Part shown: positions 27,268 to 62,989 of the stretch, piece by piece | Numbering within the stretch: the first letter of the stretch is position 1 | How the letters are laid out: the number at the start of each line of letters is the position of its first letter | Assembly (NCBI GenBank): GCA_963768055.1 | Contig: CAVYGN010000001.1 | Coordinates: forward strand, 640,001-704,000 | Direction of reading: 5' to 3' | Source: an uncultured Spirochaetota bacterium | Lineage (GTDB): Bacteria > Spirochaetota > Brevinematia > Brevinematales > JAOACQ01 | DNA: 64,000 nucleotides | Made by a program: the position numbers and the translations under genes | The notes under the pieces: generated by a model | Told to the model about the DNA's origin: nothing | Databases searched by the model: none | Seen by the model: the letters and a program-made list of their open reading frames with translations, nothing else

Positions 27268-27322
27268 TCCAGCCTGCCGTTCTTCATTGAATTTTGATAA
27301 AAGAGCCGGAAGGGGATAGAAT
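27268..27322 (+). repeat. Intergenic cassette repeat with promoter
   Basis: CCAGCCTGCC...TTGAATTTTGATAAAAGAGCCGGAAGGGGATAGAAT; -35 at 27294, -10 at 27317. Confidence 0.8.
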
Positions 27323-27420
27323 GAGGAATATTTATCAGCTTTTCATAAGTTTTGGACAATTATTGTGATAATTATTAATAAAATTATGATATAATATTTT
27401 CATAAAAAAGGAGGATTATT

Positions 27421-27924
27421 ATGCCGGATTCAATTCTTGTTGCCTATACTACAGTTGCGGGTTCAACAAAGGAAGTTGCTGAAAATTTAGGAATGGTGTT
27501 GAAAGAGGATGGTTTTAAAGTTGATATCTTACCTTTAAAAGAAATATCTTCAGTTGAAGGTTATAAAGCAATTATAATAGGGGCGCCTCTCTATATGTTT
27601 CATTGGCACAAAGATGCTCATCGTTTTCTTGAGAAGTACCGTAAAAACTTAATAAATATCCCTATAGCAGTTTTTGCTCTTGGACCCTTTAATGATGTAG
27701 AGAAAGAATGGAATGACGTAAAAGCCAACTTTGTTTTAGAATTAACAAAACATTCCTGGTTAATACCTGTTGATTCAACAATATTTGGCGGAAAATTTGA
27801 TCCTTCTAAACTGAAATTCCCATTTAATTTAATTCCAGCACTTAAGAAGCTACCTACCAGTGATATTAGAGATTGGGACAAAATAAGGTTTTGGGCTGAT
27901 AACTTGGCTAGTAAAATTAAATAA
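27421..27924 (+). CDS. Flavodoxin-domain protein (HemG-like)
   Basis: ILVAYTTVAGSTKEVA, IIIGAPLY, DIRDWDKIRFWA. Confidence 0.85.
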   Translation: MPDSILVAYTTVAGSTKEVAENLGMVLKEDGFKVDILPLKEISSVEGYKAIIIGAPLYMFHWHKDAHRFLEKYRKNLINIPIAVFALGPFNDVEKEWNDVKANFVLELTKHSWLIPVDSTIFGGKFDPSKLKFPFNLIPALKKLPTSDIRDWDKIRFWADNLASKIK

Positions 27925-27954
27925 CTTTTACTTATTGGTAACCAAGTGATACAC

Positions 27955-28007
27955 CTTGCCAGACAAATAGTGAATTTTGATAAAAGTGCCAAGGGAAGAT
28001 AGAATAA
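27955..28007 (+). repeat. Intergenic cassette repeat with promoter
   Basis: TTGCCAGACAAA...TTGATA(27977)-N17-TAGAAT(28000). Confidence 0.8.
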
Positions 28008-28030
28008 AGGAAAAATTTTGGAGGAGTATA

Positions 28031-28684
28031 ATGTTTGAAAGGTTAACAATAGAGCACGATAAAAAATTTGAAGATATTATTGAATCACGCCGCTCAGTAA
28101 GAGCGTTCAAATCAAATCCTCCCGAGGATGATATTATAAAGAAGATAATCTCTGCGGGTCTTATTGCTCCATTTGCTGCAATCCCGGCTGCTGGAACCAA
28201 AGATTTTCGAAAGTTTTTTATTATACCTGCAGCATCAAAAACAATTGAACAAATTTCAATGATTGTAGATGAACGACTCCAAATGTTAAAAGAGTCTCTT
28301 GAAAAAGAGTATGGAGATCATCCATATACAAATTTTATAAAACTGGCAGCTTCTGCAAAGTTTCAGAAAATAATTGGGAATGCACCTTTTTTAATAATTG
28401 CTGCTGAAAGGAAAGGAATACCTTCTAATACATCTGAATCTTTAAGTTATTGTATGTATAATATGTGGCTTAGAGCAATATCTTTGAAAATTGGTTTCTG
28501 CCTATTTTCATTATTGACAACATTAAACTTAGAAAATGATTCCAAGTTTTGCAATACAATAAAATTACCTATCGGAACCTTTGCTATAAATGCTTGTTTA
28601 ATAGGCTATCCCGATGATTCTTTTAAAGTTCAGCCAGTAAATTATCCTGATTATGATCAAAATATAATGTGGTTTAAAAATTAA
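28031..28684 (+). CDS. Nitroreductase family protein
   Basis: IESRRSVRAFK, AGLIAP, NMWLRAISLKIG, IGYP. Confidence 0.85.
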   Translation: MFERLTIEHDKKFEDIIESRRSVRAFKSNPPEDDIIKKIISAGLIAPFAAIPAAGTKDFRKFFIIPAASKTIEQISMIVDERLQMLKESLEKEYGDHPYTNFIKLAASAKFQKIIGNAPFLIIAAERKGIPSNTSESLSYCMYNMWLRAISLKIGFCLFSLLTTLNLENDSKFCNTIKLPIGTFAINACLIGYPDDSFKVQPVNYPDYDQNIMWFKN

Positions 28685-28721
28685 TTTCAGTGAATATTAA
28701 TTGCTCTTCCCCCTCTGCTTT

Positions 28722-29084
28722 ATGCAAAAGAAGGAAACCTGTCCAACTAATTTAGTCCCAGCAGATTCATATTTTATGGTAAATGAATCTGGGAAAATAA
28801 TAGGAACAGTTCAAATAAGGCATACATTAAATGAATATTTACTGAACTATGGCGGTCATATCGGTTATGGAATCCGACCATTAGAACGCCAAAAAGGACA
28901 CGCAAAAGTTATATTAAAGCTTGCTTTGAAAAGATGTCTCGAATTGAATATCAGGAAGATTCTAATAACCTGTAATAAAGGCAATATTGCTTCTGCAAAA
29001 ACCATTATTGCTAATGGTGGTGTACTTGAGAATGAAATTCCAGAAGGAGATAAAATAAAGCAAAGATACTGGATTACTATTTAA
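28722..29084 (+). pseudogene. GNAT acetyltransferase, 5'-truncated at a repeat copy (28703-28721)
   Basis: IRHTLNEYLLNYGGHIGYGIRP..R.KG...NIASAKTIIANGG; the N-terminal part is replaced by GCTCTTCCCCCTCTGCTTT. Confidence 0.7.
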
Positions 29085-29100
29085 GTGAAAATTTCTAATT

Positions 29101-29188
29101 CTCTCCCGCTGCTTTGCATTCTTCCCCCGTTTTCAGCATTGCCAGACAAATGAAATTTTGATAAATCTGAGGGACGGGATTAGAATAA
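29101..29188 (+). repeat. Full-length intergenic cassette repeat with promoter
   Basis: CTCTCCCGCTGCTTTGC-CTTCCCCCG-TTGCCAGACAAA-TTGATA(29158)-N17-TAGAAT(29181). Confidence 0.85.
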
Positions 29189-29239
29189 TAACGGGGGTGG
29201 ATTGATACATTAAACATATAGAGATTCAGAGGGTTGTAA

Positions 29240-29743
29240 ATGTTAGGCCTTGAAAGAAAAAAAGTTATTCTTGTGGAACATGACGATGAATGGATTTCAA
29301 ACTATGAATCAGAATCTACGGCTATAAGGGATGCTTTAGGTGATTTGGTAATCGATATACAGCATTTCGGCAGTACATCTGTACCGGGATTAAAAGCAAA
29401 GCCTATTATTGATATTTTGGTTGGAATACAGTCATTCGATAAAATTGATTTGATTATTAAACAAATGGAATCTTTGGATTACACATATGCTCATTGGGCA
29501 GGAATACCTGATGATTATACTTTCAGAAAAGGTGATAAAACGACATACTTAGTTCATATAGTAATTTATAAAACAAACAATTGGAACCATAATATTACAT
29601 TTCGTGATAAGCTCAGAAACGACTCTGCTTTATTTAAGCAATACGAGAATTTAAAAGAAGGCTTAGCCAAAAAATATCCAGATTCCCGTGAAAAATATAC
29701 AATGGGGAAAAGTAAATTTATTGAAGATACATTGAACGGATAA
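29240..29743 (+). CDS. GrpB family protein
   Basis: IQHFGSTSVPGLKAKPIIDILVG, FRDKLR, YTMGKSKFI. Confidence 0.9.
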   Translation: MLGLERKKVILVEHDDEWISNYESESTAIRDALGDLVIDIQHFGSTSVPGLKAKPIIDILVGIQSFDKIDLIIKQMESLDYTYAHWAGIPDDYTFRKGDKTTYLVHIVIYKTNNWNHNITFRDKLRNDSALFKQYENLKEGLAKKYPDSREKYTMGKSKFIEDTLNG

Positions 29744-29766
29744 GAAAAGCATCCAGTATTTTATCA

Positions 29767-29797
29767 GCTCCCTCTGCTTTGCCCGCTGTGAGGGATG
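29767..29797 (+). repeat. Short-form cassette repeat
   Basis: GCTCCCTCTGCTTTGCCCGCTGTGAGGGATG. Confidence 0.8.
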
Positions 29798-29834
29798 TAA
29801 GGTGGGGATATTTTTATTGAAAGGAGATTATTAT

Positions 29835-30608
29835 ATGAATCAGAAAATAGTAAACATGCTTATTAAACCTGGAACAAATGAAAATTTGGAATATTTTGAA
29901 AAAGACGGAATAGAATGGTTACAGGATAAAAGTGATAACAAATATAAGATAGATGATGGAATTATTCGCTTTCTTGCTGGAATTGAATTATCAGGAAATA
30001 ATAAGAGTTTTCAGAAAATGTATGATGGATTTTCAGGATTATATGATTTTGTCACACACTTTTTCGCTCTATTTAGAAGAGGTGGGGAGAAAAGAAGTCT
30101 TATGCAATATCTTTCAGAATTGGATATAATAGATGGTGAGAAAGTTATCGAAATATCTATTGGGACAGGGAGAAATATAAAATATCTGAATCCCCAAGCC
30201 GAATATTTTGGTGTAGACATTTCTTTTGGAATGCTTAGAAAGTGTATGAGAAATATGTTAAAGCGAAGATATACTATTAATCTGATTCAGGCTGAAGCAG
30301 AAAACCTTCCTCTTCGTGATAATTCTTTCGATCATGTTTTTTCTGCCGGAGGTTTTAATTATTTTAATGATAGGCAAAAAGCGATTGATGAAATGTTACG
30401 GATTGCAAAGCCTGGAACTAAATTAATGATTTCTGATGAGCCAGAAAAAATGATGAAATCATTTGAAAATATTCCTATTTTTGGAAAACTTTTTAAGCAG
30501 GATATGTCAAAAAAGCCGATTGATTTTGTTCCAAAAAATTGTCTTGAAATACAGTATAGAGAAATTTGTAATGGCGATCTGTATGTTTTAACTTTTATAA
30601 AACCATAA
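29835..30608 (+). CDS. Class I SAM-dependent methyltransferase
   Basis: VIEISIGTG, GVDIS, AENLPLRDNSFD, EMLRIAKPG. Confidence 0.9.
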   Translation: MNQKIVNMLIKPGTNENLEYFEKDGIEWLQDKSDNKYKIDDGIIRFLAGIELSGNNKSFQKMYDGFSGLYDFVTHFFALFRRGGEKRSLMQYLSELDIIDGEKVIEISIGTGRNIKYLNPQAEYFGVDISFGMLRKCMRNMLKRRYTINLIQAEAENLPLRDNSFDHVFSAGGFNYFNDRQKAIDEMLRIAKPGTKLMISDEPEKMMKSFENIPIFGKLFKQDMSKKPIDFVPKNCLEIQYREICNGDLYVLTFIKP

Positions 30609-30746
30609 TAGGAACTATCTATTGCCAGGTAAGAATTATTCAATCTTCATACTATTCCCCATCTTTCATTTCCCCTTGCCTTTTCTTTACCCCCTTCCCC
30701 CTTTATTATATAATACTCTCAAGAATTTCAAATAGAGAGGGGAATT

Positions 30747-31040
30747 ATGGCAACCGATTACTTTGAAGCGAGAAAAGCTGCAAGAAAGCCGGTTTGTATA
30801 GAAGCTGCTTATGAGTTGAATGGCATAAAAGCTGACTGTGCCATTTTAGACATATCCTCTTCAGGATTAAGAATGCGGGTAAAGGGGCTTCTTTATAAGA
30901 ACGACAAAGTTAATATAAAATTGGATGATCAGAAATTTCCTTCAATGGTAGTTTATGTTGAAGGAAATATTATTGATGTTCATTTTATGGAACTAACGGA
31001 TAGTCAGTTAAATTATATTTTCAAACTTAAAGGATTTTGA
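30747..31040 (+). CDS. PilZ-domain protein
   Basis: RxxxR (RKAAR) and DxSxxG (DISSSG) motifs. Confidence 0.85.
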   Translation: MATDYFEARKAARKPVCIEAAYELNGIKADCAILDISSSGLRMRVKGLLYKNDKVNIKLDDQKFPSMVVYVEGNIIDVHFMELTDSQLNYIFKLKGF

Positions 31041-31115
31041 TAAAGTTAATTAGCAGAGAGGTATCTTATGGCTGAATGTGAAAGCTTGAACTCGCAGGGA
31101 GTGATCGTAGTAATA

Positions 31116-31706
31116 TTAATGATAAGAATTTTTAAACGCAAATTTTTCAATCGACTCGAATAATGTTTTCTGCTGGCCATGTAAGGTCTCGCTGGAATAT
31201 AAAAGAGGCACAAAAAATCCTGAAATAGATTCCTCAAAGTAGACTTTTGTATTTCCGTCAGGCATTGACTGTAGAACATGCCTGTCGATCCCCTTTGTCC
31301 ACAAAGATCTTCCAACCCACGTTAATTCGTTCTCAGGATTTACAACCGCAAATTTAGCGTTTATCTGGAACCCTTTTGATTTAAAAGACATTCGGGCGCC
31401 GGCAGATACCGTTGATTCAAGTTTGACTTCGCTGAAAGAAGGATCAATCCGGGGCCATTCCTGAAAATTGAAAAGAATATCCCAAACTTTAGCGATAGGT
31501 GCTTTAATAATACCTTCGAAGGAGGATTTAATCGCAGCCTTTTCATCAATTAGCCCTTTTTGTGCATATTCTTTGAATAATTTGTCGTAAGAAGGTCCAT
31601 TATAAAAAATCTTTCCCATAAAACCCTCCTCATTTATTGATCCTAAAAACAAAATCACAAATAATAGTAATAAAGCCCCTAAAAAAAAGTACCATTTGAA
31701 TTTCAT
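31116..31706 (-). CDS. SRPBCC family protein
   Basis: IKAPIAKVWDIL.NFQEWP...ELTWVG...FEESISG. Confidence 0.8.
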   Translation of the reverse strand: MKFKWYFFLGALLLLFVILFLGSINEEGFMGKIFYNGPSYDKLFKEYAQKGLIDEKAAIKSSFEGIIKAPIAKVWDILFNFQEWPRIDPSFSEVKLESTVSAGARMSFKSKGFQINAKFAVVNPENELTWVGRSLWTKGIDRHVLQSMPDGNTKVYFEESISGFFVPLLYSSETLHGQQKTLFESIEKFAFKNSYH

Positions 31707-32092
31707 AGCTTTACTTCTTTATCCGATATTTCCCAAATAACACACAACACTCTCCCGTTTGAGAGATTATTTTATTATGATAACAGAAAACATTCTTGTC
31801 AATGTCAAAATCAGGTTTTCTTTCCATAAAATCACTTCAATATTAACATAAAATCAGATTTCAGGCGATTTCCTGATAACCTTTATACAAAAAGGGGATA
31901 GTAACACCTTGTAAAATCTGATATCGAATGATAGTGTTAACCAACGCCAAACAGTAACCTTAATCTATGTAATCTATCAAAGATAGCAGCAAACAACCCT
32001 TTCGGTACGGCCGAGCCTTAAAAAGTGGGAGGTATCATCTGGCACTCGTAAAAAATATTTATTAGTGCCAGAGTGCCAGGATAAACGTGATA

Positions 32093-32431
32093 TTAGAATT
32101 CTTTTTTTATAATTCTATCAAAAAGGACATCTTCAATATTTCTTCTGCCATCAATTACCGCAAGAATAAATATATCGGTTTTATCAATTTTGTAGAAAAT
32201 CCTCCAGGGATTGTCGATTATTTCCCGGTATATATTAATATTAAGAGATTCTAATTCTGGTATGATTCTTCCTTTATTCTGCATGAATTGTAAATCATCA
32301 ACTTTTGAAATAATTCTTTTATAAATTTGATTGGCTCGTTCAAACCCGTCTTTCATGATAAAATCAACAATATTATTTAAGTCTCGCTGTGCTGGTTTAG
32401 TCCACTTAACATTATAACTTGAATTATCCAT
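32093..32431 (-). CDS. RelE/ParE family toxin
   Basis: VKWTKPAQRDL, GRIIPEL, YREII..PWRIFY, VIDGRRN. Confidence 0.9.
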   Translation of the reverse strand: MDNSSYNVKWTKPAQRDLNNIVDFIMKDGFERANQIYKRIISKVDDLQFMQNKGRIIPELESLNINIYREIIDNPWRIFYKIDKTDIFILAVIDGRRNIEDVLFDRIIKKEF

Positions 32432-32714
32432 TGCTTTTAGTCAGGCTTTTCATCTTTTGGTCCATCTGCCTTTTAAATTCTTCATGAGATATAAAATTAT
32501 TATTCTTTATATCCTGCTCGCTTTCATTGATGATTTTTAATATAGACACAGCATTTATCAGGTTTTCATAACTGTCAGTATCAATAATAACAGCTTTTGC
32601 CAGACCGTTTTGAGTTATAAAAATTGGTCTATGATTGGAATTTATTTGTTTTAAAATATCAGCGGTATGTGATTTGATAAAAGAAATTGGTTTTACATCT
32701 TCTTTTAATTTCAT
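32424..32714 (-). CDS. Phd/YefM family antitoxin
   Basis: VKPISFIKSH...PIFITQNGLAKAV; overlaps the toxin gene. Confidence 0.9.
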   Translation of the reverse strand: MKLKEDVKPISFIKSHTADILKQINSNHRPIFITQNGLAKAVIIDTDSYENLINAVSILKIINESEQDIKNNNFISHEEFKRQMDQKMKSLTKSNG

Positions 32715-32819
32715 AAATTACTCCTTATCAGTGCATATATGGTACTAAAATAAGACCGTTTTGTCAAATAACAAGAACTGTCAGTTCTATTTTTGAGAGC
32801 GAATGATAACACTGCATTA

Positions 32820-33227
32820 TCAAGGGTTTTCGGTTTGTTCATTTTTCTTTATATCAATAAATTCAACACTCACTTTGTTTTGTTTGCCGATAAAATATTT
32901 AATTACTTTTGCTTTTTCCTGGATTTCTTTAATATTTTCTTCAAAGACTTTTTCAATTTTATCTTCGGTTTTATCATTTAATGTAGTCATTAATATATTT
33001 TTTACTTCATCATCATCCATATTAATATAATTTCTTAAGACAACTTCCTCTGAGTCGCCTGTCAGTTTTGAAACCAATTTAATATCATGCGTTTGTTGCC
33101 ATAAAAAAGTAGCGCTTGAATGTCTAATAACATAAATTGTAAGATCTTTGTCAAGGTTAAATACCTTTTTAATAGTATTCCATTTGTTTTTATAAATCCC
33201 TCTCGTTTTTGAATTAGGGTATTTCTC
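32820..33227 (-). pseudogene. Tyrosine recombinase C-terminal catalytic remnant
   Basis: Extending ORF 32820-33077 upstream in frame gives LTIYVIRHSSATFLWQQTHDIKLVSKLTGDSEEVVLRNY (box II RH to catalytic Y). Confidence 0.7.
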
Positions 33228-33230
33228 CCT

Positions 33231-33329
33231 CCGACAATCCGCTTCATTGCGGGATCAACGTATCTTTCTGCATCGTTCGTATCTTCGTATCCAGCAATCC
33301 TTGAGAAAACAGACTGTCGTAGTTGAGCT
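33231..33329 (-). pseudogene. IS1380-family transposase fragment
   Basis: AQLRQSVFSRIAGYEDTNDAERYVDPAMKRIVG, homologous to 4958-5206. Confidence 0.75.
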
Positions 33330-33362
33330 TATAGGTATAAATAATAGATCAGACATCGAAGG

Positions 33363-33399
33363 TGAATTTTGATAAATCTGAAGGATGCGATTAAAATAA
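33363..33399 (+). repeat. Cassette repeat, promoter half
   Basis: TGAATTTTGATAAATCTGAAGGATGCGATTAAAATAA; TTGATA-N17-TAAAAT. Confidence 0.75.
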
Positions 33400-33465
33400 T
33401 GGTTAGGATGGAATTAAATGAATAATAATTACCACGGAAAGGATAATTTCAAAAGGTGATTTCAA

Positions 33466-33945
33466 ATGAATTCTTACAAAAGATTATTCGGTTCAGGACC
33501 AATTTGTTTGCTGACAGGTTTCATATTATTTTTTATTGCATATTATTTGAAAATTGTATTTCATGCCCCTCAAATATTTATTGACCAGAAAATATTACGT
33601 TTAGCAATTTTTACTATACTGACCTCAATCACTATTATAATCAGCATTTGGATCTTTACATCATTAAGCCTGGAATCAAGAGGGAGAACATTGATAACAA
33701 CTGGCGCTTTCAAATACTTCCGTCATCCTTTATATGCCGCTTTTATAACATTTTTCTCTTTCGGATCGGCTATTCTATTAAATAACTGGATATTTATCTT
33801 ATGGGCTTTCCTTCTGCATTTTATTGGACATTTGCTTGTCGCAAGGGAAGAGAAGATGTTGAAAGAAATATTCCCAAATGATTATGAGGATTATTGTAAA
33901 AATACCGGAAGATTTATCCCGAGATTGATAATAAAAAGGCAGTAA
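33466..33945 (+). CDS. Isoprenylcysteine carboxyl methyltransferase family membrane protein
   Basis: LITTGAFKYFRHPLY...EEKML...YEDYCKNTGRFIP. Confidence 0.9.
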   Translation: MNSYKRLFGSGPICLLTGFILFFIAYYLKIVFHAPQIFIDQKILRLAIFTILTSITIIISIWIFTSLSLESRGRTLITTGAFKYFRHPLYAAFITFFSFGSAILLNNWIFILWAFLLHFIGHLLVAREEKMLKEIFPNDYEDYCKNTGRFIPRLIIKRQ

Positions 33946-34027
33946 GAATTATGACACAAAAGGCTTGCAGGTCCTGCATGCATTAAACCTGAATTGGGGC
34001 ATTAAATTATTTTGGACTGAAAAAATT

Positions 34028-34069
34028 AGCAAAATATATGTTGAATAATTCATTCCGGAATGGCATAAT
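34028..34069 (+). promoter_or_regulatory. Promoter module TTGAAT-N17-CATAAT with palindrome CATTCCGGAATG; second copy at 63020-63061
   Basis: About 42-bp near-identical match upstream of unrelated genes. Confidence 0.65.
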
Positions 34070-34100
34070 ATAAAAAGAGTCTATTAAAATTTGGGGAAAT

Positions 34101-34952: not shown

Positions 34953-35058
34953 GAAATTTAACGGCTTGATTTATTGTTTCACCTTCCAATTGTATTGTCA
35001 TTCTCCACGGGATTAGAATAATACTGAGTCGGTTTATTACTTTAAGTAGGAAGAAATT

Positions 35059-35772: not shown

Positions 35773-35787
35773 AACAGATTTTATTTA

Positions 35788-54988: not shown

Positions 54989-54997
54989 AAATTTAAC

Positions 54998-55053: not shown

Positions 55054-55084
55054 TGAAACGGATTGTTTAAGGGATAATAAACTT

Positions 55085-55384
55085 ATGTCAGTTTATATGA
55101 TTATTGAATACAAAAAAATCGAAAATGAAGCTGTATATAATGATTATATAATTCGGGCAGAACCAATTATTAAGAAATATAATGGTGAATATATAGTAAG
55201 AACCAATAAGATTAAATATCTCAATAATGATGATTGTAATCCAAAAAGAATAGTAATAATTAAGTTTCCATCGAATGAAAATTTGGATAAATGTTTTAAT
55301 AGTGAAGAATATAAGAAGATAAAATTATTAAGAGAAGATTCAACAATTAGCAGGGCAGTAATTGTTGAGGGATATGTATCATAA
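55085..55384 (+). CDS. DUF1330 family protein
   Basis: IKKYNGEYIVR...RIVIIKFPS...FNSEEYKKIKLLR...VEG. Confidence 0.85.
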   Translation: MSVYMIIEYKKIENEAVYNDYIIRAEPIIKKYNGEYIVRTNKIKYLNNDDCNPKRIVIIKFPSNENLDKCFNSEEYKKIKLLREDSTISRAVIVEGYVS

Positions 55385-55405
55385 AACAAAATATAATGAG
55401 GTAAT

Positions 55406-56161
55406 ATGAAGACTTTTTATATTCTTTTTTTATTTTCTTTTATTCTACTATCATGTGAAAGGCATCCAACTATAAATCATGTAATAATTAACGAAGATTA
55501 TTATTATAAAATTTTAAAAACGACTCAATTATATGACATTAATAAACTTCTTTATTTTATTGATTTTAACGATCATCATGGCGGAGTTTACTTCGGAAAA
55601 GAATTGAAATATCATGATTTCCATAGTTTTCAAATTGCTCAAGATCAGGATTTTAAGAAGATTAATAGCTATATTATATTTATTGTTAGTAATAGCATAA
55701 ATCAATTATACAGGGGAAAATATTATTATGTTATTTATTGGACCATAGATAATAAAGTAATAAAAAGAGGTCATTTTTATGACTCAATAACAGGAGAAGG
55801 GGGAAGTGGATTTCTTGAAATAAGAAATTTATACATATTAACCCCATCAGAAGCTGTAGAATATTTTACAAATAAATATTCGATAAATACAGAAGTGGTT
55901 GAACCTATTGAAGCAGTATATTTAAAAACTTCATTTTGGGTACAATTGGAATCTTTTTGGTTTTACAAAATAAAATTTATAAAAAATGTTTCTATTAATA
56001 ATCATATAAATAAAGAGTATTACATAAGTCCATTTGTCTTAAAAACAAATAAAAATGAAAAGCCGAGTGATTATAATTATAGTCTAATAATATTTCCAAA
56101 TTATACGTCAAGATGTTATTTTATTGATAATAAAGGAGAAATGACTCCACTAAATAGATAG
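55406..56161 (+). CDS. Hypothetical lipoprotein
   Basis: GAGG RBS; LLSC lipobox. Confidence 0.6.
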   Translation: MKTFYILFLFSFILLSCERHPTINHVIINEDYYYKILKTTQLYDINKLLYFIDFNDHHGGVYFGKELKYHDFHSFQIAQDQDFKKINSYIIFIVSNSINQLYRGKYYYVIYWTIDNKVIKRGHFYDSITGEGGSGFLEIRNLYILTPSEAVEYFTNKYSINTEVVEPIEAVYLKTSFWVQLESFWFYKIKFIKNVSINNHINKEYYISPFVLKTNKNEKPSDYNYSLIIFPNYTSRCYFIDNKGEMTPLNR

Positions 56162-56169
56162 ATACTTTG

Positions 56170-56241
56170 TCTGCTTTCCCATTTTCCGGCATTCCCAAAC
56201 AATTGAATTTTTGATAAAAACGCCAGGAGGGGATAGAATAA
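56170..56241 (+). repeat. Cassette repeat with promoter
   Basis: TTGATA(56211)-N17-TAGAAT(56234). Confidence 0.8.
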
Positions 56242-56260
56242 AGAAAAAATGAGGGTTATT

Positions 56261-57544
56261 ATGAAACAAAGATTTGTTTTTATTATCATTTTAATTTTTA
56301 TCAATTCATATTCTTTTTCTGATTTTAACCACAGGTCGATAACAAGCTGTATATTATCAATGCCAACAAATTTTTCTGGTTTTGAATTCAAGGTTATTAG
56401 TAATGAATTATATTATTATGGCAATGATTATTATGGCTATAATAGCTCATTTAAAAAAGTATTTTTAGATGAAAAAAATGGTTATATTAAAATATTCCCA
56501 AACCCACGTAATATAAGTTCTGGGAATCTTAAATTCTACCCTGGAGATTTCTATGATACATATGCACTATTTTTAGACAGTAATAACAATCCTTATATTT
56601 CAAGGTTTGAATATTTCATTAATGAAAATAAGGATTTAGAAACATCTATAATGATATATTCATATTCCATTGAATGGTTTTTGTGTAGCAATATTATTTC
56701 CAATTTTTCAATTAATGATTTTTACACAAACACCAATATTGATATTCCTAATGATAATATATTGATATTTTATGAATTACCACAATATGGAACAATAATC
56801 AGAGTCGAGCCTTATTTAATTAATAATACTGATTTTGAATATATTCCGAATTTTGATTATATAGAGTTGAATTGGGACAAAACAAATGGTGTGTTTTTTA
56901 TTAACAATAAGCATTTAAATAAAAATAAATTATTTTTTGTAAACAAGTTAGCTTATGAATCTACTTCATATAAAGATTATTTAATTCTTAATGATACTAA
57001 TAAAAACGAATTACTATTAAATATGGTAAATTCAATCAAAACTATTGACGATTGTGAGAAATTATACTGGATTCTTATTGCTAATAAGTTTGAAGATATA
57101 AAATTAACTTTTAATATTATACAACCCTTCACACATAAAGTTATGGAATTTTATAATAAGTACCCTGTTCAAGTAATTTCAATGTGTACAGGTTTAAATC
57201 ATGGTGGAGCAGCATCAGATGAACAAGCAGTATTTTTATTTGAATACTTATACTGGAGGAATCCATATCTATACTTATCCTCAATAAGTCAAACAAATAT
57301 AATAGATAATTATTTTCTTCCTAATGATTCTGGGGAATTAATCAAAGATTATATGTATTGGCTACCTAAAAGTAATTATGATATCGAAGCCTTTGGTGGA
57401 ATAACACCTGAGAATAAAAATAAAGTCAGAAATCAAACAAGAAAAGATGTCATTAATTTAATAAATAAATTACCAGAAAATGAAAGATGGATTTCAAATA
57501 AAATTATTAAGCATACTTACTTTATGACACATCCCGATGAATGA
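56261..57544 (+). CDS. Hypothetical exported protein
   Basis: Long ORF with signal-like N-terminus. Confidence 0.6.
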   Translation: MKQRFVFIIILIFINSYSFSDFNHRSITSCILSMPTNFSGFEFKVISNELYYYGNDYYGYNSSFKKVFLDEKNGYIKIFPNPRNISSGNLKFYPGDFYDTYALFLDSNNNPYISRFEYFINENKDLETSIMIYSYSIEWFLCSNIISNFSINDFYTNTNIDIPNDNILIFYELPQYGTIIRVEPYLINNTDFEYIPNFDYIELNWDKTNGVFFINNKHLNKNKLFFVNKLAYESTSYKDYLILNDTNKNELLLNMVNSIKTIDDCEKLYWILIANKFEDIKLTFNIIQPFTHKVMEFYNKYPVQVISMCTGLNHGGAASDEQAVFLFEYLYWRNPYLYLSSISQTNIIDNYFLPNDSGELIKDYMYWLPKSNYDIEAFGGITPENKNKVRNQTRKDVINLINKLPENERWISNKIIKHTYFMTHPDE

Positions 57545-57554
57545 AATAATTTGA

Positions 57555-57593
57555 GCTCTTCCCCCTCTGCTTTGCCTGCTGTGAGGGATGGGG
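57555..57593 (+). repeat. Short-form cassette repeat
   Basis: GCTCTTCCCCCTCTGCTTTGCCTGCTGTGAGGGATGGGG. Confidence 0.85.
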
Positions 57594-57612
57594 AGGATAG
57601 GGAGAATTAGTT

Positions 57613-58212
57613 ATGCGAGATATAATTACTATATTATTCAATAACTTTGAAACCATTGATGTCTTTGGACCAATAGAAGTATTTGGAAGATTAAACGACA
57701 ATTTTAATTCGCAATTTTATTCACAAAATGGCGGGATTATTGTAAGCAGTCAGAATGTCCCAATAATGACCAGGGCAATATCAGAAATAAATTCGAATAA
57801 TTACATACTCTTCATACCTGGTGGAATTGGAACAAGGGAATTGTTCAAAGATAAGGTATTTATTGATAGTCTTAAGTCATTGTCAAAAGATGCTGAGTTT
57901 ATATTTACGGTCTGCACTGGTTCAATTTTATTCTCTAAAACAGGATTGTTAAACGGGAAAAAAGCGACTTCAAACAAACGGTTTTTTGAGACGACAAAAG
58001 AATCTCCTGATGTAAACTGGATAAAAAAAGCTCGGTGGGTGAAAGATGGAAATATTTATACGAGTTCGGGCATAAGCGCTGGAATCGATATGGCATTAGG
58101 GTTTATATCTGACTTATTAGGTTATTCTATTGCGAAACAACAGAGCAATGAAATTGAATATGACTGGAAAGAAGATCCTGACTGGGACCCATTGTCAGAG
58201 TTATATAAATAA
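57613..58212 (+). CDS. DJ-1/PfpI family protein
   Basis: FETIDVFGP, IPGG, VCTGS, TSSGISAGIDMAL. Confidence 0.9.
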   Translation: MRDIITILFNNFETIDVFGPIEVFGRLNDNFNSQFYSQNGGIIVSSQNVPIMTRAISEINSNNYILFIPGGIGTRELFKDKVFIDSLKSLSKDAEFIFTVCTGSILFSKTGLLNGKKATSNKRFFETTKESPDVNWIKKARWVKDGNIYTSSGISAGIDMALGFISDLLGYSIAKQQSNEIEYDWKEDPDWDPLSELYK

Positions 58213-58237
58213 TACTCCTTTTAGTTAACTTGTTTAC

Positions 58238-58294
58238 CTGCCAGCCTTCCTCTTTCCAGCCTGCCAGACAATTGAATTTTTGATAAAAGTGCCA
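58238..58294 (+). repeat. Cassette repeat truncated within the promoter spacer
   Basis: TTTCCAGCCTGCCAGACAATTGAATTTTTGATAAAAGTGCCA then diverges. Confidence 0.8.
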
Positions 58295-58473
58295 ATCATA
58301 ATGTCTCTGCATTTTACCTGCATTGCGGGTACATTAATTTTACCAATTGAATATTTTAAGATATAATATATTGCTATCACCAATAAAACTGCAAGACATA
58401 TGGGCTTGCGACTTCCTTTCTTTCTGACGGATAAATAGACCGTTAAAAAAATATTTTAAGAGAAGGAGTATTT

Positions 58474-59013
58474 ATGGTGAACCTATCTGTATTAAAGGAA
58501 CCAACGGAACTATCATTGCTCATATCCTTTTGCGACCTAAGCAATTTTGCAAAATTATCACAAAAGATGAATGAATTTGAACTCTTCAAATTTGTTTCAA
58601 ATTTCTATGGGCAAATAGGAGAAATTATCGAATCATCAGGCGGAACAATAATTAAGTTTATTGGTGATGAAGCCTTAATAATCTATCCGGAGGATAAAAT
58701 TGATATAGGTGTTATAAGTGTGTTAAAATTGAAGCATTTAATTGACGGACAGAACAAAGGTAATGGAATTGATTCACGACTAAATGTTAAAATTCATTTT
58801 GGAAAAGTAGTTGCTGGGTTATTGGGGACACAATCTACAAAGCGCCTGGATATTATTGGTAAAGAAGTGAATACAGCGGCTTTACTAAAATCTAATGGAT
58901 TCGCGATGACACCCGAAGTATTCAGAAAATTAAACAAAGAAACAAGAACTTTGTTTAAAAAGCATACACCTCCAATAACTTATATCCCTTTAGAAGAAAG
59001 GCATAAAGATTAA
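58474..59013 (+). CDS. Class III adenylate/guanylate cyclase domain protein
   Basis: FCDLSNF, IKFIGDE, IHFGKV, DIIGKEVNTAA. Confidence 0.85.
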   Translation: MVNLSVLKEPTELSLLISFCDLSNFAKLSQKMNEFELFKFVSNFYGQIGEIIESSGGTIIKFIGDEALIIYPEDKIDIGVISVLKLKHLIDGQNKGNGIDSRLNVKIHFGKVVAGLLGTQSTKRLDIIGKEVNTAALLKSNGFAMTPEVFRKLNKETRTLFKKHTPPITYIPLEERHKD

Positions 59014-59061
59014 TTTAAATTGTATTGGTGATAGCATAATTTAATTCTGTCCTTGAGCCTG

Positions 59062-59137
59062 CATTTTAGCCTGCCTCCTTGTTCATACTCCCATACTTCA
59101 TTAATTTTGATAAAAGTGCCAGGAGGGGATAGAATAA
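59062..59137 (+). repeat. Cassette repeat with promoter
   Basis: TTGATA(59107)-AAAGTGCCAGGAGGGGA-TAGAAT(59130). Confidence 0.8.
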
Positions 59138-59162
59138 AGGAAAATTATGATTGGATGGATTT

Positions 59163-59582
59163 ATGAATATAAGGTTTTACAATAATGATTCAGACCAGGA
59201 ATCTGTTATTGAATTATGGAAGTCGGCGTTTAATTATGATTCACCCCACAATGATCCATTAACCTCAATAAAAAGGAAAATAGAATATAATGACAATCTG
59301 TTTTTTGTGGCAGAAACTGATGATAGAAAAATTATAGGTACAATTATGGCTGGATATGATGGACATAGGGGATGGATTTATTCACTTGCTGTTAAACAAA
59401 AACACAGGAATGAAGGGATTGGTACATTATTACTTCATTATGCTGAAAATGAATTATTGAAATTAAACTGCCCTAAAATCAACTTGCAAATATTGGCTTC
59501 CAATCAGGAAGTAATCGATTTTTATAAAAAGAATGGCTACAATATTGAGGAAAGGATAAGTATGGGTAAAAAGCTTTGTTAA
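59163..59582 (+). CDS. GNAT acetyltransferase (YpeA-like)
   Basis: MAGYDGHRGWIYSLAV, CPKINLQI, FYKKNGY..EERISMGK. Confidence 0.9.
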   Translation: MNIRFYNNDSDQESVIELWKSAFNYDSPHNDPLTSIKRKIEYNDNLFFVAETDDRKIIGTIMAGYDGHRGWIYSLAVKQKHRNEGIGTLLLHYAENELLKLNCPKINLQILASNQEVIDFYKKNGYNIEERISMGKKLC

Positions 59583-59603
59583 TCTGATAACAAAGATTTT
59601 GCA

Positions 59604-59663
59604 CTTCCCCCCTGCTTACCCTTCCTTCCTTTTTCAGCTTGCCCTCAAGGTAATTTTGATAAA
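59604..59663 (+). repeat. Cassette repeat truncated after the -35 element
   Basis: CTTCCCCCCTGCTT...TTTTCAGCTTGCC...AATTTTGATAAA. Confidence 0.75.
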
Positions 59664-59664
59664 T

Positions 59665-59763
59665 GATATAACAATAGTACTCAATGAGCCCCCTTTGGAA
59701 AATTGGGGATTGGCAGGAAAATCTGGAGAAGAAGCAAATATCGGATTCAATTTAAACGTTTAG
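59665..59763 (+). pseudogene. 3' remnant of a tautomerase-family gene
   Basis: DITIVLNEPPLENWGLAGKSGEEANIGFNLNV* lies between two repeat copies. Confidence 0.6.
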
Positions 59764-59767
59764 AATA

Positions 59768-59812
59768 GCTCTTCCCCCTCTGCTTTGCCTGTTATGAGGG
59801 ATGGGGTGAGGG
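59768..59812 (+). repeat. Short-form cassette repeat
   Basis: GCTCTTCCCCCTCTGCTTTGCCTGTTATGAGGGATGGGGTGAGGG. Confidence 0.85.
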
Positions 59813-59839
59813 TGAAGGATATATATAGGATAGGTAGTT

Positions 59840-60202
59840 ATGGGGCAATCTACTTCACAGACCACAGCTTTTTTTGAGGAAATTACTTTTAATAAAATTG
59901 TTTGGACAATTAAAGATGAAAAAGGATTTCCTGCTCCTTTAAACGCCGATGGTAAACGAGCTCAGCCATTTTGGTCTTCAAAATTGAGAGTTGAAAGAAT
60001 AATTAAAAAAGTAAAAGCATATTCTATATTTTCAATTCATGAAATATCTTTAAATAATTTTATAGAAAAATGGATTCCAGGGTTGAAAAAAGAAATATTG
60101 GTAGGTATTAATTGGTCTGGTGAAGAACAACGGGTTATGATTTTGAGCCAAAAGAGGTATTGGAAACAATCGAATATTATCTTTCTAAAGAAAAATGAAT
60201 AA
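59840..60202 (+). CDS. DUF2750 family protein (likely frameshift near the 3' end)
   Basis: VWTIKDEKGFPAP...AQPFWSS...VGINWSG; GYDFEPKEV appears in another frame. Confidence 0.7.
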   Translation: MGQSTSQTTAFFEEITFNKIVWTIKDEKGFPAPLNADGKRAQPFWSSKLRVERIIKKVKAYSIFSIHEISLNNFIEKWIPGLKKEILVGINWSGEEQRVMILSQKRYWKQSNIIFLKKNE

Positions 60203-60253
60203 GGAAATTTTGATGCGGATGAAAAAATAAAAAATATGATATTAAGCCTTAAT

Positions 60254-60280
60254 CTCTGCTTTGCCTGCTATAAGGGATGG
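60254..60280 (+). repeat. Short-form cassette repeat
   Basis: CTCTGCTTTGCCTGCTATAAGGGATGG. Confidence 0.8.
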
Positions 60281-60306
60281 TGTTTAAGGATCAAAGGAGA
60301 AAATTA

Positions 60307-61068
60307 ATGGAACTGGCTCAAGAACAATACAATAATATATCATATTACTACGAGATATTTTATTCGGGAATAGATTCAATCCAGTTCGAAAATGATTTTA
60401 TAAACCAGTTTAAGGAATATCTGGATAGGGTGCCAAATAATGCAAAAATTTGTGATTGCGCCTGTGGTAATGGAATTCAGGCTATAGCTCTGAAAAGACA
60501 AGGCTTTGATGTTATGGCAACAGATATTAGTGATGAAATGATAAGGTTGACTATAAAAAAAGCAAAGGAGAACAATTTAGATTTTCCAATAAAAAGAATG
60601 TCCTGGAAAGAACTATCGATAAGTAATCCAGACAAATTTGATGCTGTATTCTGCTGGGGAAATTCAATTAGTAATAGCCTGTCAAAACAGGAAATGATAG
60701 ATAACCTTAAATCGATTTATCAGACAATCAGGGCAAATGGAAAATTATTCATAGATACAAGAAATTGGGATAAATTAGTTAAAACCAAGCAGAGGTATTA
60801 TACCTATGATATCAAAGAATATATTGGTAAGAAATATTTACCCTTTTACATTATGAACATTGGCAATTTTGATGAGCAAAGTAATCTTGAAATGTTATTC
60901 CTTGAAATCAAAGATAATTTAAAAACAGAATGCATCGGGTTTAAATTAGATTTTATGCCCTTTACACATAATGATTTTAAACTGCGATTGAAAGAAGTTG
61001 GATTCAAAATATTGAAAGATAATTATAAGGATGATGAGGATTTTTATTATCTTGTGCTTGAGAAATAG
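60307..61068 (+). CDS. Class I SAM-dependent methyltransferase
   Basis: ICDCACGNG, ATDIS, FDAVFCWGNS. Confidence 0.9.
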   Translation: MELAQEQYNNISYYYEIFYSGIDSIQFENDFINQFKEYLDRVPNNAKICDCACGNGIQAIALKRQGFDVMATDISDEMIRLTIKKAKENNLDFPIKRMSWKELSISNPDKFDAVFCWGNSISNSLSKQEMIDNLKSIYQTIRANGKLFIDTRNWDKLVKTKQRYYTYDIKEYIGKKYLPFYIMNIGNFDEQSNLEMLFLEIKDNLKTECIGFKLDFMPFTHNDFKLRLKEVGFKILKDNYKDDEDFYYLVLEK

Positions 61069-61075
61069 ATGATTA

Positions 61076-61148
61076 CTCTGCCTGCCTCAGTATACCACTG
61101 TCATTCTCCGTTGAAATTTTGATAAAAGCGCCAAGATGGAATAAAATA
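61076..61148 (+). repeat. Cassette repeat with promoter
   Basis: TGTCATTCTCCGTTGAAAT-TTGATA(61119)-N17-TAAAAT(61142). Confidence 0.75.
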
Positions 61149-61176
61149 AAGACGAATTGTGAAGGAATAGAATAGT

Positions 61177-61758
61177 ATGGGAAAATATGACGCAATGACT
61201 GGTAATGAACGTCTTTGGGTAAGTGGTTTGATGGATGAGTTTGATGTTGCCAAAATTAATAATAAGCGAAGAGCATATGAAATATTAAAAAGTTTGGATT
61301 TTGATGAGGCATCAATTTTAAAAATATTAGAATTGGCATTTCCAATTAATATTCTTCTCAAAGCTGCATGTAATTATTATCCATATAATGTAATAAAAGA
61401 ATTAGAGAAATTTAAACATAATGACTTACTTTCAGTAGGTTGGGGATATTTCAATAAGGAAATAATTAACGATATTGAAAATAGAAAAAATATGAATAAT
61501 TTATTTGTTTTTACAAATGATGAATTGGTTCAATATTTAAGGACAAACAAAGATTTATGTGAAAAAATATTCAATGAATCTTATGACAAAAGAATAACTC
61601 GATCAACATTTATTCAAGAAAATAAAGGCAAATTCGAAGTTGGAATATATGATAATGAATACAAAGAATTAAAAATATGGGACTATTTATTTGTTGGTGT
61701 TGCAGATTACATTTTATTAACCTGGGGTCTTGGTCGATTAGGTTATCCTTATGAATAA
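61177..61758 (+). CDS. Hypothetical protein
   Basis: 193-aa ORF between two repeat copies. Confidence 0.6.
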   Translation: MGKYDAMTGNERLWVSGLMDEFDVAKINNKRRAYEILKSLDFDEASILKILELAFPINILLKAACNYYPYNVIKELEKFKHNDLLSVGWGYFNKEIINDIENRKNMNNLFVFTNDELVQYLRTNKDLCEKIFNESYDKRITRSTFIQENKGKFEVGIYDNEYKELKIWDYLFVGVADYILLTWGLGRLGYPYE

Positions 61759-61765
61759 ATTTAAA

Positions 61766-61798
61766 GCTCTTCCCCCTTTGCTTTGCCTACTGAGGGAT
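61766..61798 (+). repeat. Short-form cassette repeat
   Basis: GCTCTTCCCCCTTTGCTTTGCCTACTGAGGGAT. Confidence 0.8.
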
Positions 61799-61871
61799 AT
61801 AAAGGAATTATGATGAAAGATTGGAGCTAAGAGAGCTGAAAGGGAAGGCGAAAAAGGAAAGGAATAGTTCA

Positions 61872-62303
61872 ATGAGTTTTGGGATATTTACTGATAAGAA
61901 TTTTAAACCAACTATTGATGATATCCATAATGCTTTATCAATTTCAAAGCCTCTATTTGAATATTTGGTGAATTACATCGAATGTAATTTTAAAACGCAT
62001 TCTGAATTGAAATTTTATGGTAAGAATTATGGTTGGGCATTAAGATTTAATAGATCAGGCAAGTCATTAATTGCTTTATATCCTGGAAAGGATGAATTTA
62101 CTGCTCAGATAATTCTTAATGATAAACAGGTTTTAGAAGCCTTGAATTCAGATATCAGTGAAAAAGCCAAAAATATTATTGAGAAAACACCTGAAATATA
62201 TGAGGGAAAATGGATTTTTATCAAAGTTAATTCCGAAGTCATAGTTAAAGATGTTGAAAAACTGATTTTAATAAGAACTAATAAAGATCAAAATATGGAA
62301 TAA
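61872..62303 (+). CDS. DUF3788 family protein
   Basis: FYGKNYGWALRF...KSLIALYP...EGKWIFIKV. Confidence 0.75.
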   Translation: MSFGIFTDKNFKPTIDDIHNALSISKPLFEYLVNYIECNFKTHSELKFYGKNYGWALRFNRSGKSLIALYPGKDEFTAQIILNDKQVLEALNSDISEKAKNIIEKTPEIYEGKWIFIKVNSEVIVKDVEKLILIRTNKDQNME

Positions 62304-62306
62304 TGA

Positions 62307-62960
62307 ATGACACAAAAGAGATATGAGAAAATCAAAGCAGGTATAAAATATTCATACAATATTGCCGCTAAAAATTATCACAAGCTGTTTTCTGATGAGT
62401 TAAAAGAACATAAATATGACCAGCAATTATTAAGTCAATTTGCAGATGAGCTTCCAAAAGATTCTATTATCTGTGATATCGGCTGTGGTCCATCTGTTCA
62501 AATGGGTGGTTATTTATTTGAAAAAGGACATAATGTTGAAGGGCTGGATTTTTCAGATGCTTGCATTGAAAACGCCAAGACAATATATCCGAAAATGAAA
62601 ATTCATAATGTTGATATGACAAAAACAAATTTACCAGATAATTCTTATGATGGAATTATTTCATTTTATTCATTATTTCATATCCCAAAAGAATATCAAC
62701 ATGAGGTGTTTAAAGAATTTCATAGAATATTAAAACCAGGTGGGAAATTACTTCTGATGAATCATAAAGGTTCTGAACGAAAAATAATTAAGGAGATATG
62801 GGCGCATAATAACTTGAAATTATTCATCAATTTTTCAACTGAAAAAGAGATAAGAGAATTGGTATCAAATAATAATTTTATAATAAACTTATTGGAATCG
62901 AAAAAAGCCTATTATGATTATCCGAAAGAAAGAATTATATGTCTGGCGACACGAATATAA
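62307..62960 (+). CDS. Class I SAM-dependent methyltransferase
   Basis: ICDIGCGP, GLDFS, FYSLFH, RILKPGG. Confidence 0.9.
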   Translation: MTQKRYEKIKAGIKYSYNIAAKNYHKLFSDELKEHKYDQQLLSQFADELPKDSIICDIGCGPSVQMGGYLFEKGHNVEGLDFSDACIENAKTIYPKMKIHNVDMTKTNLPDNSYDGIISFYSLFHIPKEYQHEVFKEFHRILKPGGKLLLMNHKGSERKIIKEIWAHNNLKLFINFSTEKEIRELVSNNNFIINLLESKKAYYDYPKERIICLATRI

Positions 62961-62962
62961 AT

Positions 62963-62989
62963 GCTCTTCTCCCTCTGCTTTGCCTGCTA
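62963..62989 (+). repeat. Short-form cassette repeat, left arm only
   Basis: GCTCTTCTCCCTCTGCTTTGCCTGCTA, 2 bp after a stop codon. Confidence 0.8.

Follow-up and report, generated by a model that had tools for sequence, protein, structure and literature searches.

The stretch analyzed here, referred to as the window, comprises 64,000 nt of contig CAVYGN010000001.1 (positions 640,001 to 704,000) from the genome assembly of an uncultured Spirochaetota bacterium of the Brevinematales (GCA_963768055.1). It contains two arrays of small accessory genes, termed cassettes, that run in the same direction and are separated by copies of a modular repeat (Table 1). The repeat was searched with two nhmmer profiles seeded from window copies (E ≤ 1) in the 3.69-Mb source genome (G000, with contigs referred to as C1 and C2), and a covariance model of the repeat (R1) was run on G000 and on four related genomes of the same genus (G001 to G004). 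Cassettes were annotated with Pfam, the integrase family was traced by tblastn, and tRNA genes were identified with ARAGORN.

A modular repeat between co-directional accessory genes

A first-pass annotation, made from the sequence alone, had listed about 24 copies of one + strand repeat, and the sequence printed at each of the 24 positions indeed contained it, whole or in part. The nhmmer profiles recovered 21 of the listed copies, all on the + strand of the window; the other three were an exact 5' module (28703), a truncated copy (59604, R1 E 0.0011), and a deleted form recognized by eye only (34996). Repeat finding within the window gave 6 to 10 copies per family for each part of the repeat. 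A 17-nt motif from the 5' end occurred seven times at up to three mismatches versus 0.12 times expected from 100 shuffles, with one of the seven, on the - strand at 38523, probably being a chance match.

The long and short modular forms described in the first-pass annotation were found as such. Both start with a 5' module of 22 to 25 nt (GCTCTTCC..CTCTGCTTTGCC) and begin close to stop codons, as had been claimed: of the 38 modules whose distance from the preceding stop codon could be measured, 30 started at -9 to +22 nt (median 12.5 nt). In the long form, the module is followed by a variable pyrimidine linker, an A/T-rich stretch, and the hexamers TTGATA and TAGAAT with 17 nt between them. The short form, which carries no promoter, consists of the 5' module, TGCTAT, and GAGGGAYGGGG; the last of these corresponds, in degenerate form, to the G-rich end of the long-form spacer. 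The hybrid copy at 37033-37084 connects the two forms. The long form is a mosaic, since linker types A and B and spacer types 1 and 2 (type 2 reads AATCTGAGGGACGGGATTAGAAT) occurred in all four combinations (6, 2, 10, and 2 copies), and two copies were hybrids within the spacer.

The claim that the repeat carries a promoter agreed with the conservation pattern. Among 24 aligned long copies, only TTGATAA and TA.AAT were invariant, and the spacer between the -35 and -10 hexamers was 17 nt long in 40 of the 41 copies that contain both. The pattern TTGATA-17-TAGAAT was found 37 times in the genome, 27 of these in the arrays (4.7% of the genome), where it precedes unrelated genes; TTGACA-17-TATAAT had 49 of its 52 genome copies outside the arrays. 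In the window, the tRNA-Tyr gene has TTGACA-17-TAGAAT ahead of it, and TAGAAT is thus probably usable as a -10 hexamer in this organism. The end of TAGAATAA lies at a median distance of 35 nt before the start of the next open reading frame (ORF). Tail and linker together (1087 nt) contain 37.6% C and 10.0% G. Intrinsic-terminator-like sites were not enriched in positions 50000-64000 (6 versus 6.4 expected), and a rho gene is present in the genome (653 bits, cut-off 509).

The 50 'long' and 30 'short' raw nhmmer matches in the genome merged to 76 sites, 71 of them on the + strand. Sixty sites, all on the + strand, lie in C1:505-764 kb, a 259-kb low-GC stretch in which most 10-kb bins have a GC content of 27 to 38%, versus 41.5% for the genome. 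Two small arrays are located on C2, with seven sites at 1854.7-1859.4 kb (+) and three at 1153.8-1155.1 kb (-); the remaining six sites are scattered and mostly represent the promoter part alone. This clustering argues against a genome-wide element resembling repetitive extragenic palindromes (REP) or miniature inverted-repeat transposable elements (MITEs), for which scatter in both orientations would be expected. The arrays themselves (27 to 35% GC) are co-directional with repetitive intergenic sequences. In the three array regions, the ORF following a repeat was on the same strand in 59 of 63 cases and the preceding ORF in 56 of 62, which supports the proposed layout of mostly one gene per unit with the repeat ahead of the next + strand gene. 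An Rfam scan of the window gave no RNA family beyond two tRNAs.

Table 1. Array features of the window and adjoining elements, with positions numbered from the first nucleotide of the window
Feature	Position	Strand	Evidence
Array 1: flavodoxin, nitroreductase, truncated GNAT, GrpB, methyltransferase, PilZ, PEMT-like, Fer4, AICARFT-like, alpha/beta hydrolase	27249..38000	+	Pfam, repeats, tblastn
Long-form repeat, pyrimidine linker and TTGATA-17-TAGAAT	27249..27329	+	nhmmer E 1.7e-15
Long-form repeat, promoter part without 5' module	27941..28012	+	nhmmer E 2.8e-10
Lone 5' module joined to 5'-truncated GNAT ORF	28702..28722	+	exact match, family D4; Pfam match from profile position 28
Full long form, type-2 spacer AATCTGAGGGACGGGATTAGAAT	29101..29192	+	nhmmer E 8.7e-15; alignment A1
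Short form	29759..29803	+	nhmmer E 5.4e-09
Interruption of array 1, four ORFs: 196-aa Polyketide_cyc2-like, ParE/Phd pair, integrase C-terminal fragment	31116-33247	-	
Integrase C-terminal fragment, ~70 aa, same family as the truncated integrase	32988..33209	-	tblastn
Promoter-only copy heading a + strand run, adjoins the - strand integrase fragment	33364..33402	+	nhmmer E 0.29; R1 E 1.3e-4
Deleted copy, linker type B joined to GGGATTAGAATAA, without -35 hexamer	34996..35024	+	by eye only
Short form	35788..35830	+	nhmmer E 7.5e-07
Hybrid: 5' module, short loop, GGGATTAGAATAA	37033..37084	+	nhmmer
Short form closing array 1	37954..37998	+	nhmmer E 2.8e-10
Promoter-only copy ahead of + strand methyltransferase genes, after a - strand ABC transporter operon	41456..41499	+	nhmmer E 0.2; R1 E 0.0016
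tRNA-Tyr	49795..49878	+	ARAGORN
Tyrosine integrase, N-terminal 226 codons, truncated	49949..50629	+	Pfam SAM-like domain; tblastn, 33% identity to intact C2 Int1
Array 2, extends past window end: DUF4304, DMP19, TPR, DUF1330 + 251-aa ORF, 431-aa ORF, DJ-1, cyclase, GNAT, DUF2750, methyltransferase, 193-aa ORF, DUF3788 + methyltransferase; one IS3-family insertion	50949..63002	+	
Long form, type-2 spacer	50949..51028	+	nhmmer E 6.9e-15
IS3-family insertion sequence in array 2	52021..53616	-	second copy 23880-25475
Full long form, best-scoring copy	53946..54040	+	nhmmer E 2e-20; R1 76 bits
Internally deleted long form, GCTTTG joined to ATAAAA	54998..55059	+	nhmmer E 2.5e-09
Long form	56165..56247	+	nhmmer E 1.6e-18
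Short form	57554..57597	+	nhmmer E 2.6e-10
Truncated long form, stops after -35 hexamer, no -10	58233..58295	+	nhmmer E 3.1e-09; scored 'no promoter'
Long form	59063..59143	+	nhmmer E 9.8e-18
Truncated long form	59613..59665	+	R1 E 0.0011
Short form	59765..59810	+	nhmmer E 3.2e-11
Short form ahead of methyltransferase cassette that in G004 is repeat-free	60242..60287	+	nhmmer
Long form	61072..61155	+	nhmmer E 1.1e-15
Short form	61763..61807	+	nhmmer E 1.9e-07
5' module joined to a different repeated promoter-like sequence	62959..63002	+	nhmmer

The Pfam annotation also bore out that the cargo is of the kind found in integron cassettes. Across the arrays, the cassette products comprise flavodoxin, nitroreductase, GNATs, GrpB, many methyltransferases, DJ-1, cupins, glyoxalase-type proteins, DinB, SMR, metallo-beta-lactamase (MBL)-fold proteins, PilZ, DUFs, and a ParE/Phd pair. 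This toxin-antitoxin pair (window 32093-32714, -) lies inside array 1 on the opposite strand and recalls the toxin-antitoxin cassettes of large chromosomal integrons.

Integron features and comparison with known systems

Integrons are the textbook route by which bacteria stockpile and reshuffle single-gene cassettes. The first-pass annotation had reported neither attC sites nor the integron integrase IntI, and directed searches agreed with it on both counts. The IntI model TIGR02249 (cut-off 265 bits) gave 16 matches in a six-frame search of the whole genome, which is 94.75% complete, and the best of them scored 87.8 bits. Core pairs of attC type (RYYYAAC and GTTRRRY, 35 to 130 nt apart) were counted on both strands of C1:600001-740000; only 2 were found in these 140 kb, none of them at a repeat, versus 36.9 ± 9.8 in 20 shuffles, and the core motifs themselves were depleted. 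Sixteen copies folded as DNA on both strands were no better than 100 shuffles (z -1.60 to +1.64), and eight copies folded as RNA gave no hairpin beyond shuffled sequences (z -1.56 to +0.07). Base composition accounts for the apparent pairing between the C-rich start and the G-rich end. An attC or hairpin nature of the repeat is thus ruled out by the depleted core pairs and the shuffle-level folds.

The anatomy is integron-like nevertheless: the cassettes are co-oriented, mostly single-gene, and have the repeat immediately 3' of each ORF. With integrons and clusters of attC sites lacking an integrase (CALINs; PMC4889954), the arrays share long rows of small accessory genes, mostly single and unrelated, that point in one direction, a cargo of GNATs, methyltransferases, glyoxalase-type proteins, DJ-1, and a toxin-antitoxin pair, a species-specific repeat at each boundary just past the stop codon, and a cassette content that varies among relatives. 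The arrays differ in that they have no IntI, no RYYYAAC/GTTRRRY cores, no hairpin, and breakpoints that are not at one position. A CALIN is defined by two or more attC sites with no integrase close by, whereas attC sites are absent here as judged by core pairs and folds. Moreover, each long repeat has its own promoter, whereas integron cassettes depend on Pc. According to PMC3607928, Treponema is the sole spirochaete clade known to carry integrons; a literature search on integrons in spirochaetes and Brevinematales gave nothing on such arrays.

The rAID-1 clusters of Bacteroidales (Ross et al., bioRxiv 10.1101/471110) are similar in that they are low-GC co-directional arrays with repetitive intergenic sequences, and array 2 has a truncated tyrosine integrase at its 5' end. 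Their cargo consists of immunity genes and their recombinase is conserved directly upstream of the array, whereas the cassettes here mainly encode enzymes of detoxification or modification, with one DMP19-like gene as an exception, and the integrases are tRNA-adjacent island integrases that are either degraded or ~11 kb from the array; this comparison is one of descriptions. Tycheposons (bioRxiv 10.1101/2020.12.28.424599) grow by tandem accretion at tRNA genes and share with the present case islands at tRNA genes with tyrosine integrases, including a 15-nt tRNA-Tyr end repeat that bounds one island here. The repeat between the cassettes is, in contrast, no tRNA fragment, the best common word being 9 nt long. 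Promoter reuse and putative mobile promoters (PMC3575422) likewise involve highly similar promoters before non-homologous genes in one genome; here, however, the promoter is fused to the conserved 3' tail of the preceding gene, clustered, on one strand, and at cassette breakpoints. By sequence, the arrays have the pattern of mobile promoters, with 27 of 37 TTGATA-17-TAGAAT sites ahead of unrelated genes within them (promoters predicted). The Correia elements, Neisseria intergenic mosaic elements (NIMEs), and minimal mobile elements of Neisseria are mosaic intergenic repeats that supply promoters or terminators and homology for exchange by transformation; Correia elements have inverted terminal repeats and occur genome-wide in both orientations. 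The repeat of the arrays has neither inverted terminal repeats nor such a genome-wide spread in both orientations.

Islands, integrases, and cassette turnover

One family of tyrosine integrases, which are generic and phage-type, adjoins the tRNA-Tyr gene in the window, a tRNA-Ala gene (C2:1841350), and two tRNA-Ser genes. The integrase in the window is cut at codon 226, where it runs into the interior part of a cassette ORF that is complete in the C2 array; homology to C2:1856116-1856511 begins at window position 50629, which points to a deletion. The last 15 nt of tRNA-Tyr (window 49864-49878) are repeated beyond the window at C1:724178-724192, and this direct repeat bounds a putative 34.3-kb island containing array 2. 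Together with the tRNA-adjacent integrases, the repeated tRNA-Tyr end suggests that the arrays are cargo of tRNA-integrated islands. Array 2 is headed by the truncated co-directional integrase, integrase remnants adjoin two array starts in the window, and the intact C2 integrases lie ~11 kb upstream of the C2 array. No recombinase adjoined the arrays examined in G003 or G001. TCCCCCTCT occurs both in the 5' module and at the 3' ends of the two tRNA-Ser genes that have an integrase beside them. A tRNA 3' end was considered as origin of the module and rejected: the longest word common to the module and any of 48 tRNAs was 9 nt long, which 21% of 500 shuffled modules also reached.

The IS3-family element is present in 16 genome copies, 14 of them at 99.9 to 100% identity and with 4-bp target duplications, which points to a recent burst of activity. 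Six of the 16 copies are in C1:610-737 kb, and one of them separates the -35 from the -10 hexamer of a repeat promoter at C1:713189. Targeting of the repeat by this element was discarded, as only this one of the 16 copies lies within a repeat and the remaining targets are unrelated AT-rich 4-bp sites.

Within the genus, R1 gave 49 matches in G000, 16 in G003, 5 in G001, 1 in G002, and 0 in G004, and other genera of the family gave only weak partial matches. Matches to the integrase family numbered 10, 5, 1, 0, and 0 in the same order and thus ran parallel to the repeat counts, although this parallel rests on five related genomes and is not an independent test. Among 41 related genomes, the short-form pattern was limited to G000 (11 matches) and G003 (1 match). 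In one genome per species across the collection, it gave four single matches in unrelated taxa, which are at chance level by a hand estimate, and no arrays; no repeat match was found in viral contigs or plasmids. A metagenome scan with the promoter pattern yielded two contigs, of which the array-bearing one (L031) had the same BLAST identities and repeat matches as a G001 locus (L034). Three freshwater-sediment DNA runs of one study contained 7 to 29% of the sampled words; their reads gave only short low-depth contigs, and a single 'joint' and loose ends matched paralogous repeat copies elsewhere in the genome.

Most G000 cassettes had no close counterpart in G001 to G004, and only a handful of high-identity DNA matches besides insertion sequence (IS) elements were found. 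These matches, and duplicated cassettes within G000, allowed the breakpoints to be placed. An MBL cassette of G001 was 89.9% identical to C1:709554-710419, with homology that starts at the -35 hexamer and extends up to where the 5' module ends, whereas the adjoining syntenic core was only 71.6% identical; the cassette lies at the tRNA-Ala locus in G001 and in a C1 array in G000. In G003, a cupin (83%) and a Fer4 cassette (93%, both values for the matched stretches) are ordered as in G000 but enclose one different cassette instead of two; on its left side, this replacement has its breakpoint within the pyrimidine linker, and on its right side, within the promoter spacer immediately ahead of GAGGGGATAGAAT. 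A two-gene cupin-methyltransferase cassette is present three times in G000 (92 to 95% identity) with three different upstream linkers, and its copies diverge downstream directly after GCTTTGCC. The cassette at window 50629-51024 is repeated in C2 (97.7%), with homology stopping in the promoter spacer. The comparison of array gene order between relatives thus showed that cassettes have been gained, lost, and replaced, and that the breakpoints lie within repeats. In addition, four homologues (73 to 76%) of cassettes that are dispersed in G000 stand side by side in G003 with no repeat between them.

Several other elements were observed. A lysine-rich small ORF (~80 to 120 aa, MPGKR..KIDPKIGAFVREAF..) has exactly four genome copies, all outside the window (L022:14653-14925, L024:13364-13666, L028:267-638, and L029:11740-11985 on the - strand), one of which ends in the AT-hook-like KRGRKPG. 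Each copy follows an array on the strand of that array, 0.9 to 4.6 kb past the last repeat, and has its own conserved promoter-like sequence ahead of it. The ORF matched no Pfam or PHROG family, and its product may be an island-borne nucleoid-type or silencing protein. As a component of the repeat system it was dismissed, because it was not found with this query in G001 to G004, including the repeat-bearing G003. A second, pyrimidine-rich promoter-like repeat (..CATCTTTCATTTCCCC..N..CGATAATTAATTCA) precedes several non-cassette island genes (window 16142-16269; C1:613772-613818, 614578-614652, and 716549-716715). A third promoter-like repeat, TATGACTTATAGTTCCGAGTAAGCAAAATAAATGTTGAATAATTCATTCCAGAATAGCATAAT, occurs at window 62990-63060, C1:725.8 kb, and C1:708.5 kb and is fused to the 5' module in two places. 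Recent segmental duplications were found for window 12925-15861 versus C1:599793-602715, 2051-3538 versus 20393-21888, and 9316-9840 versus 12645-13254; they contain HlyD-MacB-type efflux genes (98.5% identity), a CBM_4_9 protein, and sensor-kinase fragments, and their junctions are illegitimate, one of them inside a response-regulator gene. Window 5777-8414 contains an RHS-repeat fragment followed by several small ORFs without a family assignment, which may represent orphan toxin-tip and immunity modules.

Possible routes of cassette exchange

Our preferred reading, to which we give about an even chance, is that the repeat is an expression module, composed of a terminator-like tail and a promoter, that doubles as a homology seam for cassette exchange. 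The repeat would then be a genus-specific 'tail plus promoter' module between the accessory genes of tRNA-integrated islands. Its C-rich, G-poor, and unstructured tail ~12 nt past the stop codon would end or insulate upstream transcription, most plausibly via Rho, and the sigma-70-type promoter of the long form (TTGATA, 17 nt, TAGAAT), predicted to be strong, would drive the next gene. Each long-form cassette would form its own transcription unit, with foreign AT-rich genes being expressed individually, and the short forms without -35 hexamer would probably leave the next gene co-transcribed. The same 13- to 45-nt blocks recur in the same direction at every gene boundary and may act as seams for cassette deletion, duplication, swaps within the genome, and replacement by DNA from related species, via homology-driven recombination or template switching with no site-specific enzyme involved. 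Promoter activity, Rho-type termination, and the recombination route are what we infer from the sequence. Homology-driven exchange accounts for the data no less well than a dedicated capture system would.

Several observations weigh against such a homology seam. The methyltransferase gene at window 60286-61068 is 91 to 96% identical in G004, the genome with no R1 match, where it follows a hairpin terminator and is repeat-free; the homology is confined to the ORF and the 20 nt ahead of its ATG. The DinB gene at C1:708623-709119 is 88.5% identical in G003, again ORF-precise and in a repeat-free setting of higher GC content. With homology that runs from the ribosome-binding site to the stop codon and no repeat present, crossing-over in repeats cannot explain these two genes. 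A 98% identical copy of an internal part of a nitroreductase gene abuts the very first position of a 5' module, and a truncated GNAT gene is joined to the end of one; several independent junctions, these two among them, coincide with the edges of the 22-nt module and could mark a defined breakage site. The conserved blocks of 13 to 45 nt are short for RecA-type exchange, and the parallel between repeat and integrase-family counts points in the same direction. Due to the ORF-precise repeat-free copies, the exact module-edge junctions, and the integrase parallel, dedicated recombination stays a rival. An IS21-type element, 89% identical to an element of G000, splits the methyltransferase gene in G004 (L037:5719-8310; homologous to window 60277-61068).

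In this rival reading, which we consider possible but unlikely, a dedicated enzyme, perhaps of the island tyrosine integrase family, would recombine at a defined site in the 22-nt C-rich module and excise or insert promoter-gene-tail units, so that a simple, unfolded double-stranded site would take the role of attC. The integron-like anatomy with its typical cargo, the discrete module edges with unrelated DNA joined to them, the ORF-precise homology as seen for integron cassettes, the integrase-family counts that track the repeat counts in five genomes, the integrase remnants abutting two array starts in the window, and the TCCCCCTCT common to the module and two tRNA-Ser 3' ends are consistent with it. 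However, the breakpoints cover a span of more than 60 nt within the repeat, one replacement has non-equivalent breakpoints on its two sides, and the linkers travel with neither neighboring gene. A tRNA match of 9 nt is also obtained with 21% of shuffled modules, there is no hairpin and there are no inverted arms, and the integrases sit next to tRNA genes like ordinary island integrases, none of them adjoining the arrays examined in G003 and G001. A true integron analogue, in which the integrase family or another enzyme would use the module as a double-stranded attachment site and capture ORF-precise units behind a resident promoter, would also explain the two genes found at 88 to 96% identity in repeat-free sister contexts; we attach a small probability to it. 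The distinct capture system proposed in the first-pass annotation, with the repeat as unit boundary and possibly as recombination substrate, holds for the boundary. As to the substrate, the non-equivalent breakpoints, the mosaic structure of the repeat, the two repeat-free cassettes, and the lack of a recombinase consistently adjoining arrays weigh against treating it as established.

The homology seam was also weighed against two readings in which the repeat plays no part in exchange. The repeat might be purely regulatory and kept alike by selection and gene conversion, with turnover caused by island integration, IS activity, and illegitimate recombination and seeming to coincide with repeats merely since repeats fill every intergenic space. 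It is indeed mainly the promoter hexamers that are conserved, the region is rich in illegitimate junctions, C1:610-737 kb contains six of the 16 IS3 copies, and ORF-precise homology exists in repeat-free contexts. Nevertheless, wherever both copies carry repeats, homology always stops inside the repeat rather than in coding or unique flanking sequence, and all four block combinations occur, which suggests exchange within the repeats themselves; we hold this explanation to be rather unlikely. Quite improbable in our view is that the repeat is a promoter-bearing, non-autonomous MITE multiplied in G000 and the cassette look a by-product of its insertions. Such an element would have terminal inverted repeats or a fold beyond shuffled sequences, neither of which was observed, and the printed flanks contained no target duplication. 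All 60 copies of the main region are on one strand, 59 of 63 copies are co-oriented with the next gene, no orthologous gene pair differing solely by the presence of the repeat was found, and no transposase is associated with it, the IS3 element targeting unrelated AT-rich sites with 1 of 16 copies in a repeat. What would fit a MITE is the strong variation of copy number between species (49, 16, 5, 1, and 0), the four adjacent repeat-free cassette homologues (73 to 76%) in G003, and the solitary promoter-only copies outside the arrays.

The arrays extend the same architecture to super-integron scale, with more than 60 boundaries in ~160 kb of low-GC DNA of a freshwater-sediment relative of spirochaetes, and they combine an integron-like layout with the absence of IntI and attC and with a predicted promoter at most boundaries. 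Sister species, with their ORF-precise gene copies, provide a rare opportunity to study the transition from a free gene to a cassette. Involvement of a dedicated enzyme would make the arrays a new system of cassette capture. Should exchange be driven by homology, a portable 'tail plus promoter' module would suffice for integron-like turnover and for the immediate expression of foreign AT-rich genes. Either outcome would inform how cassette arrays arise.

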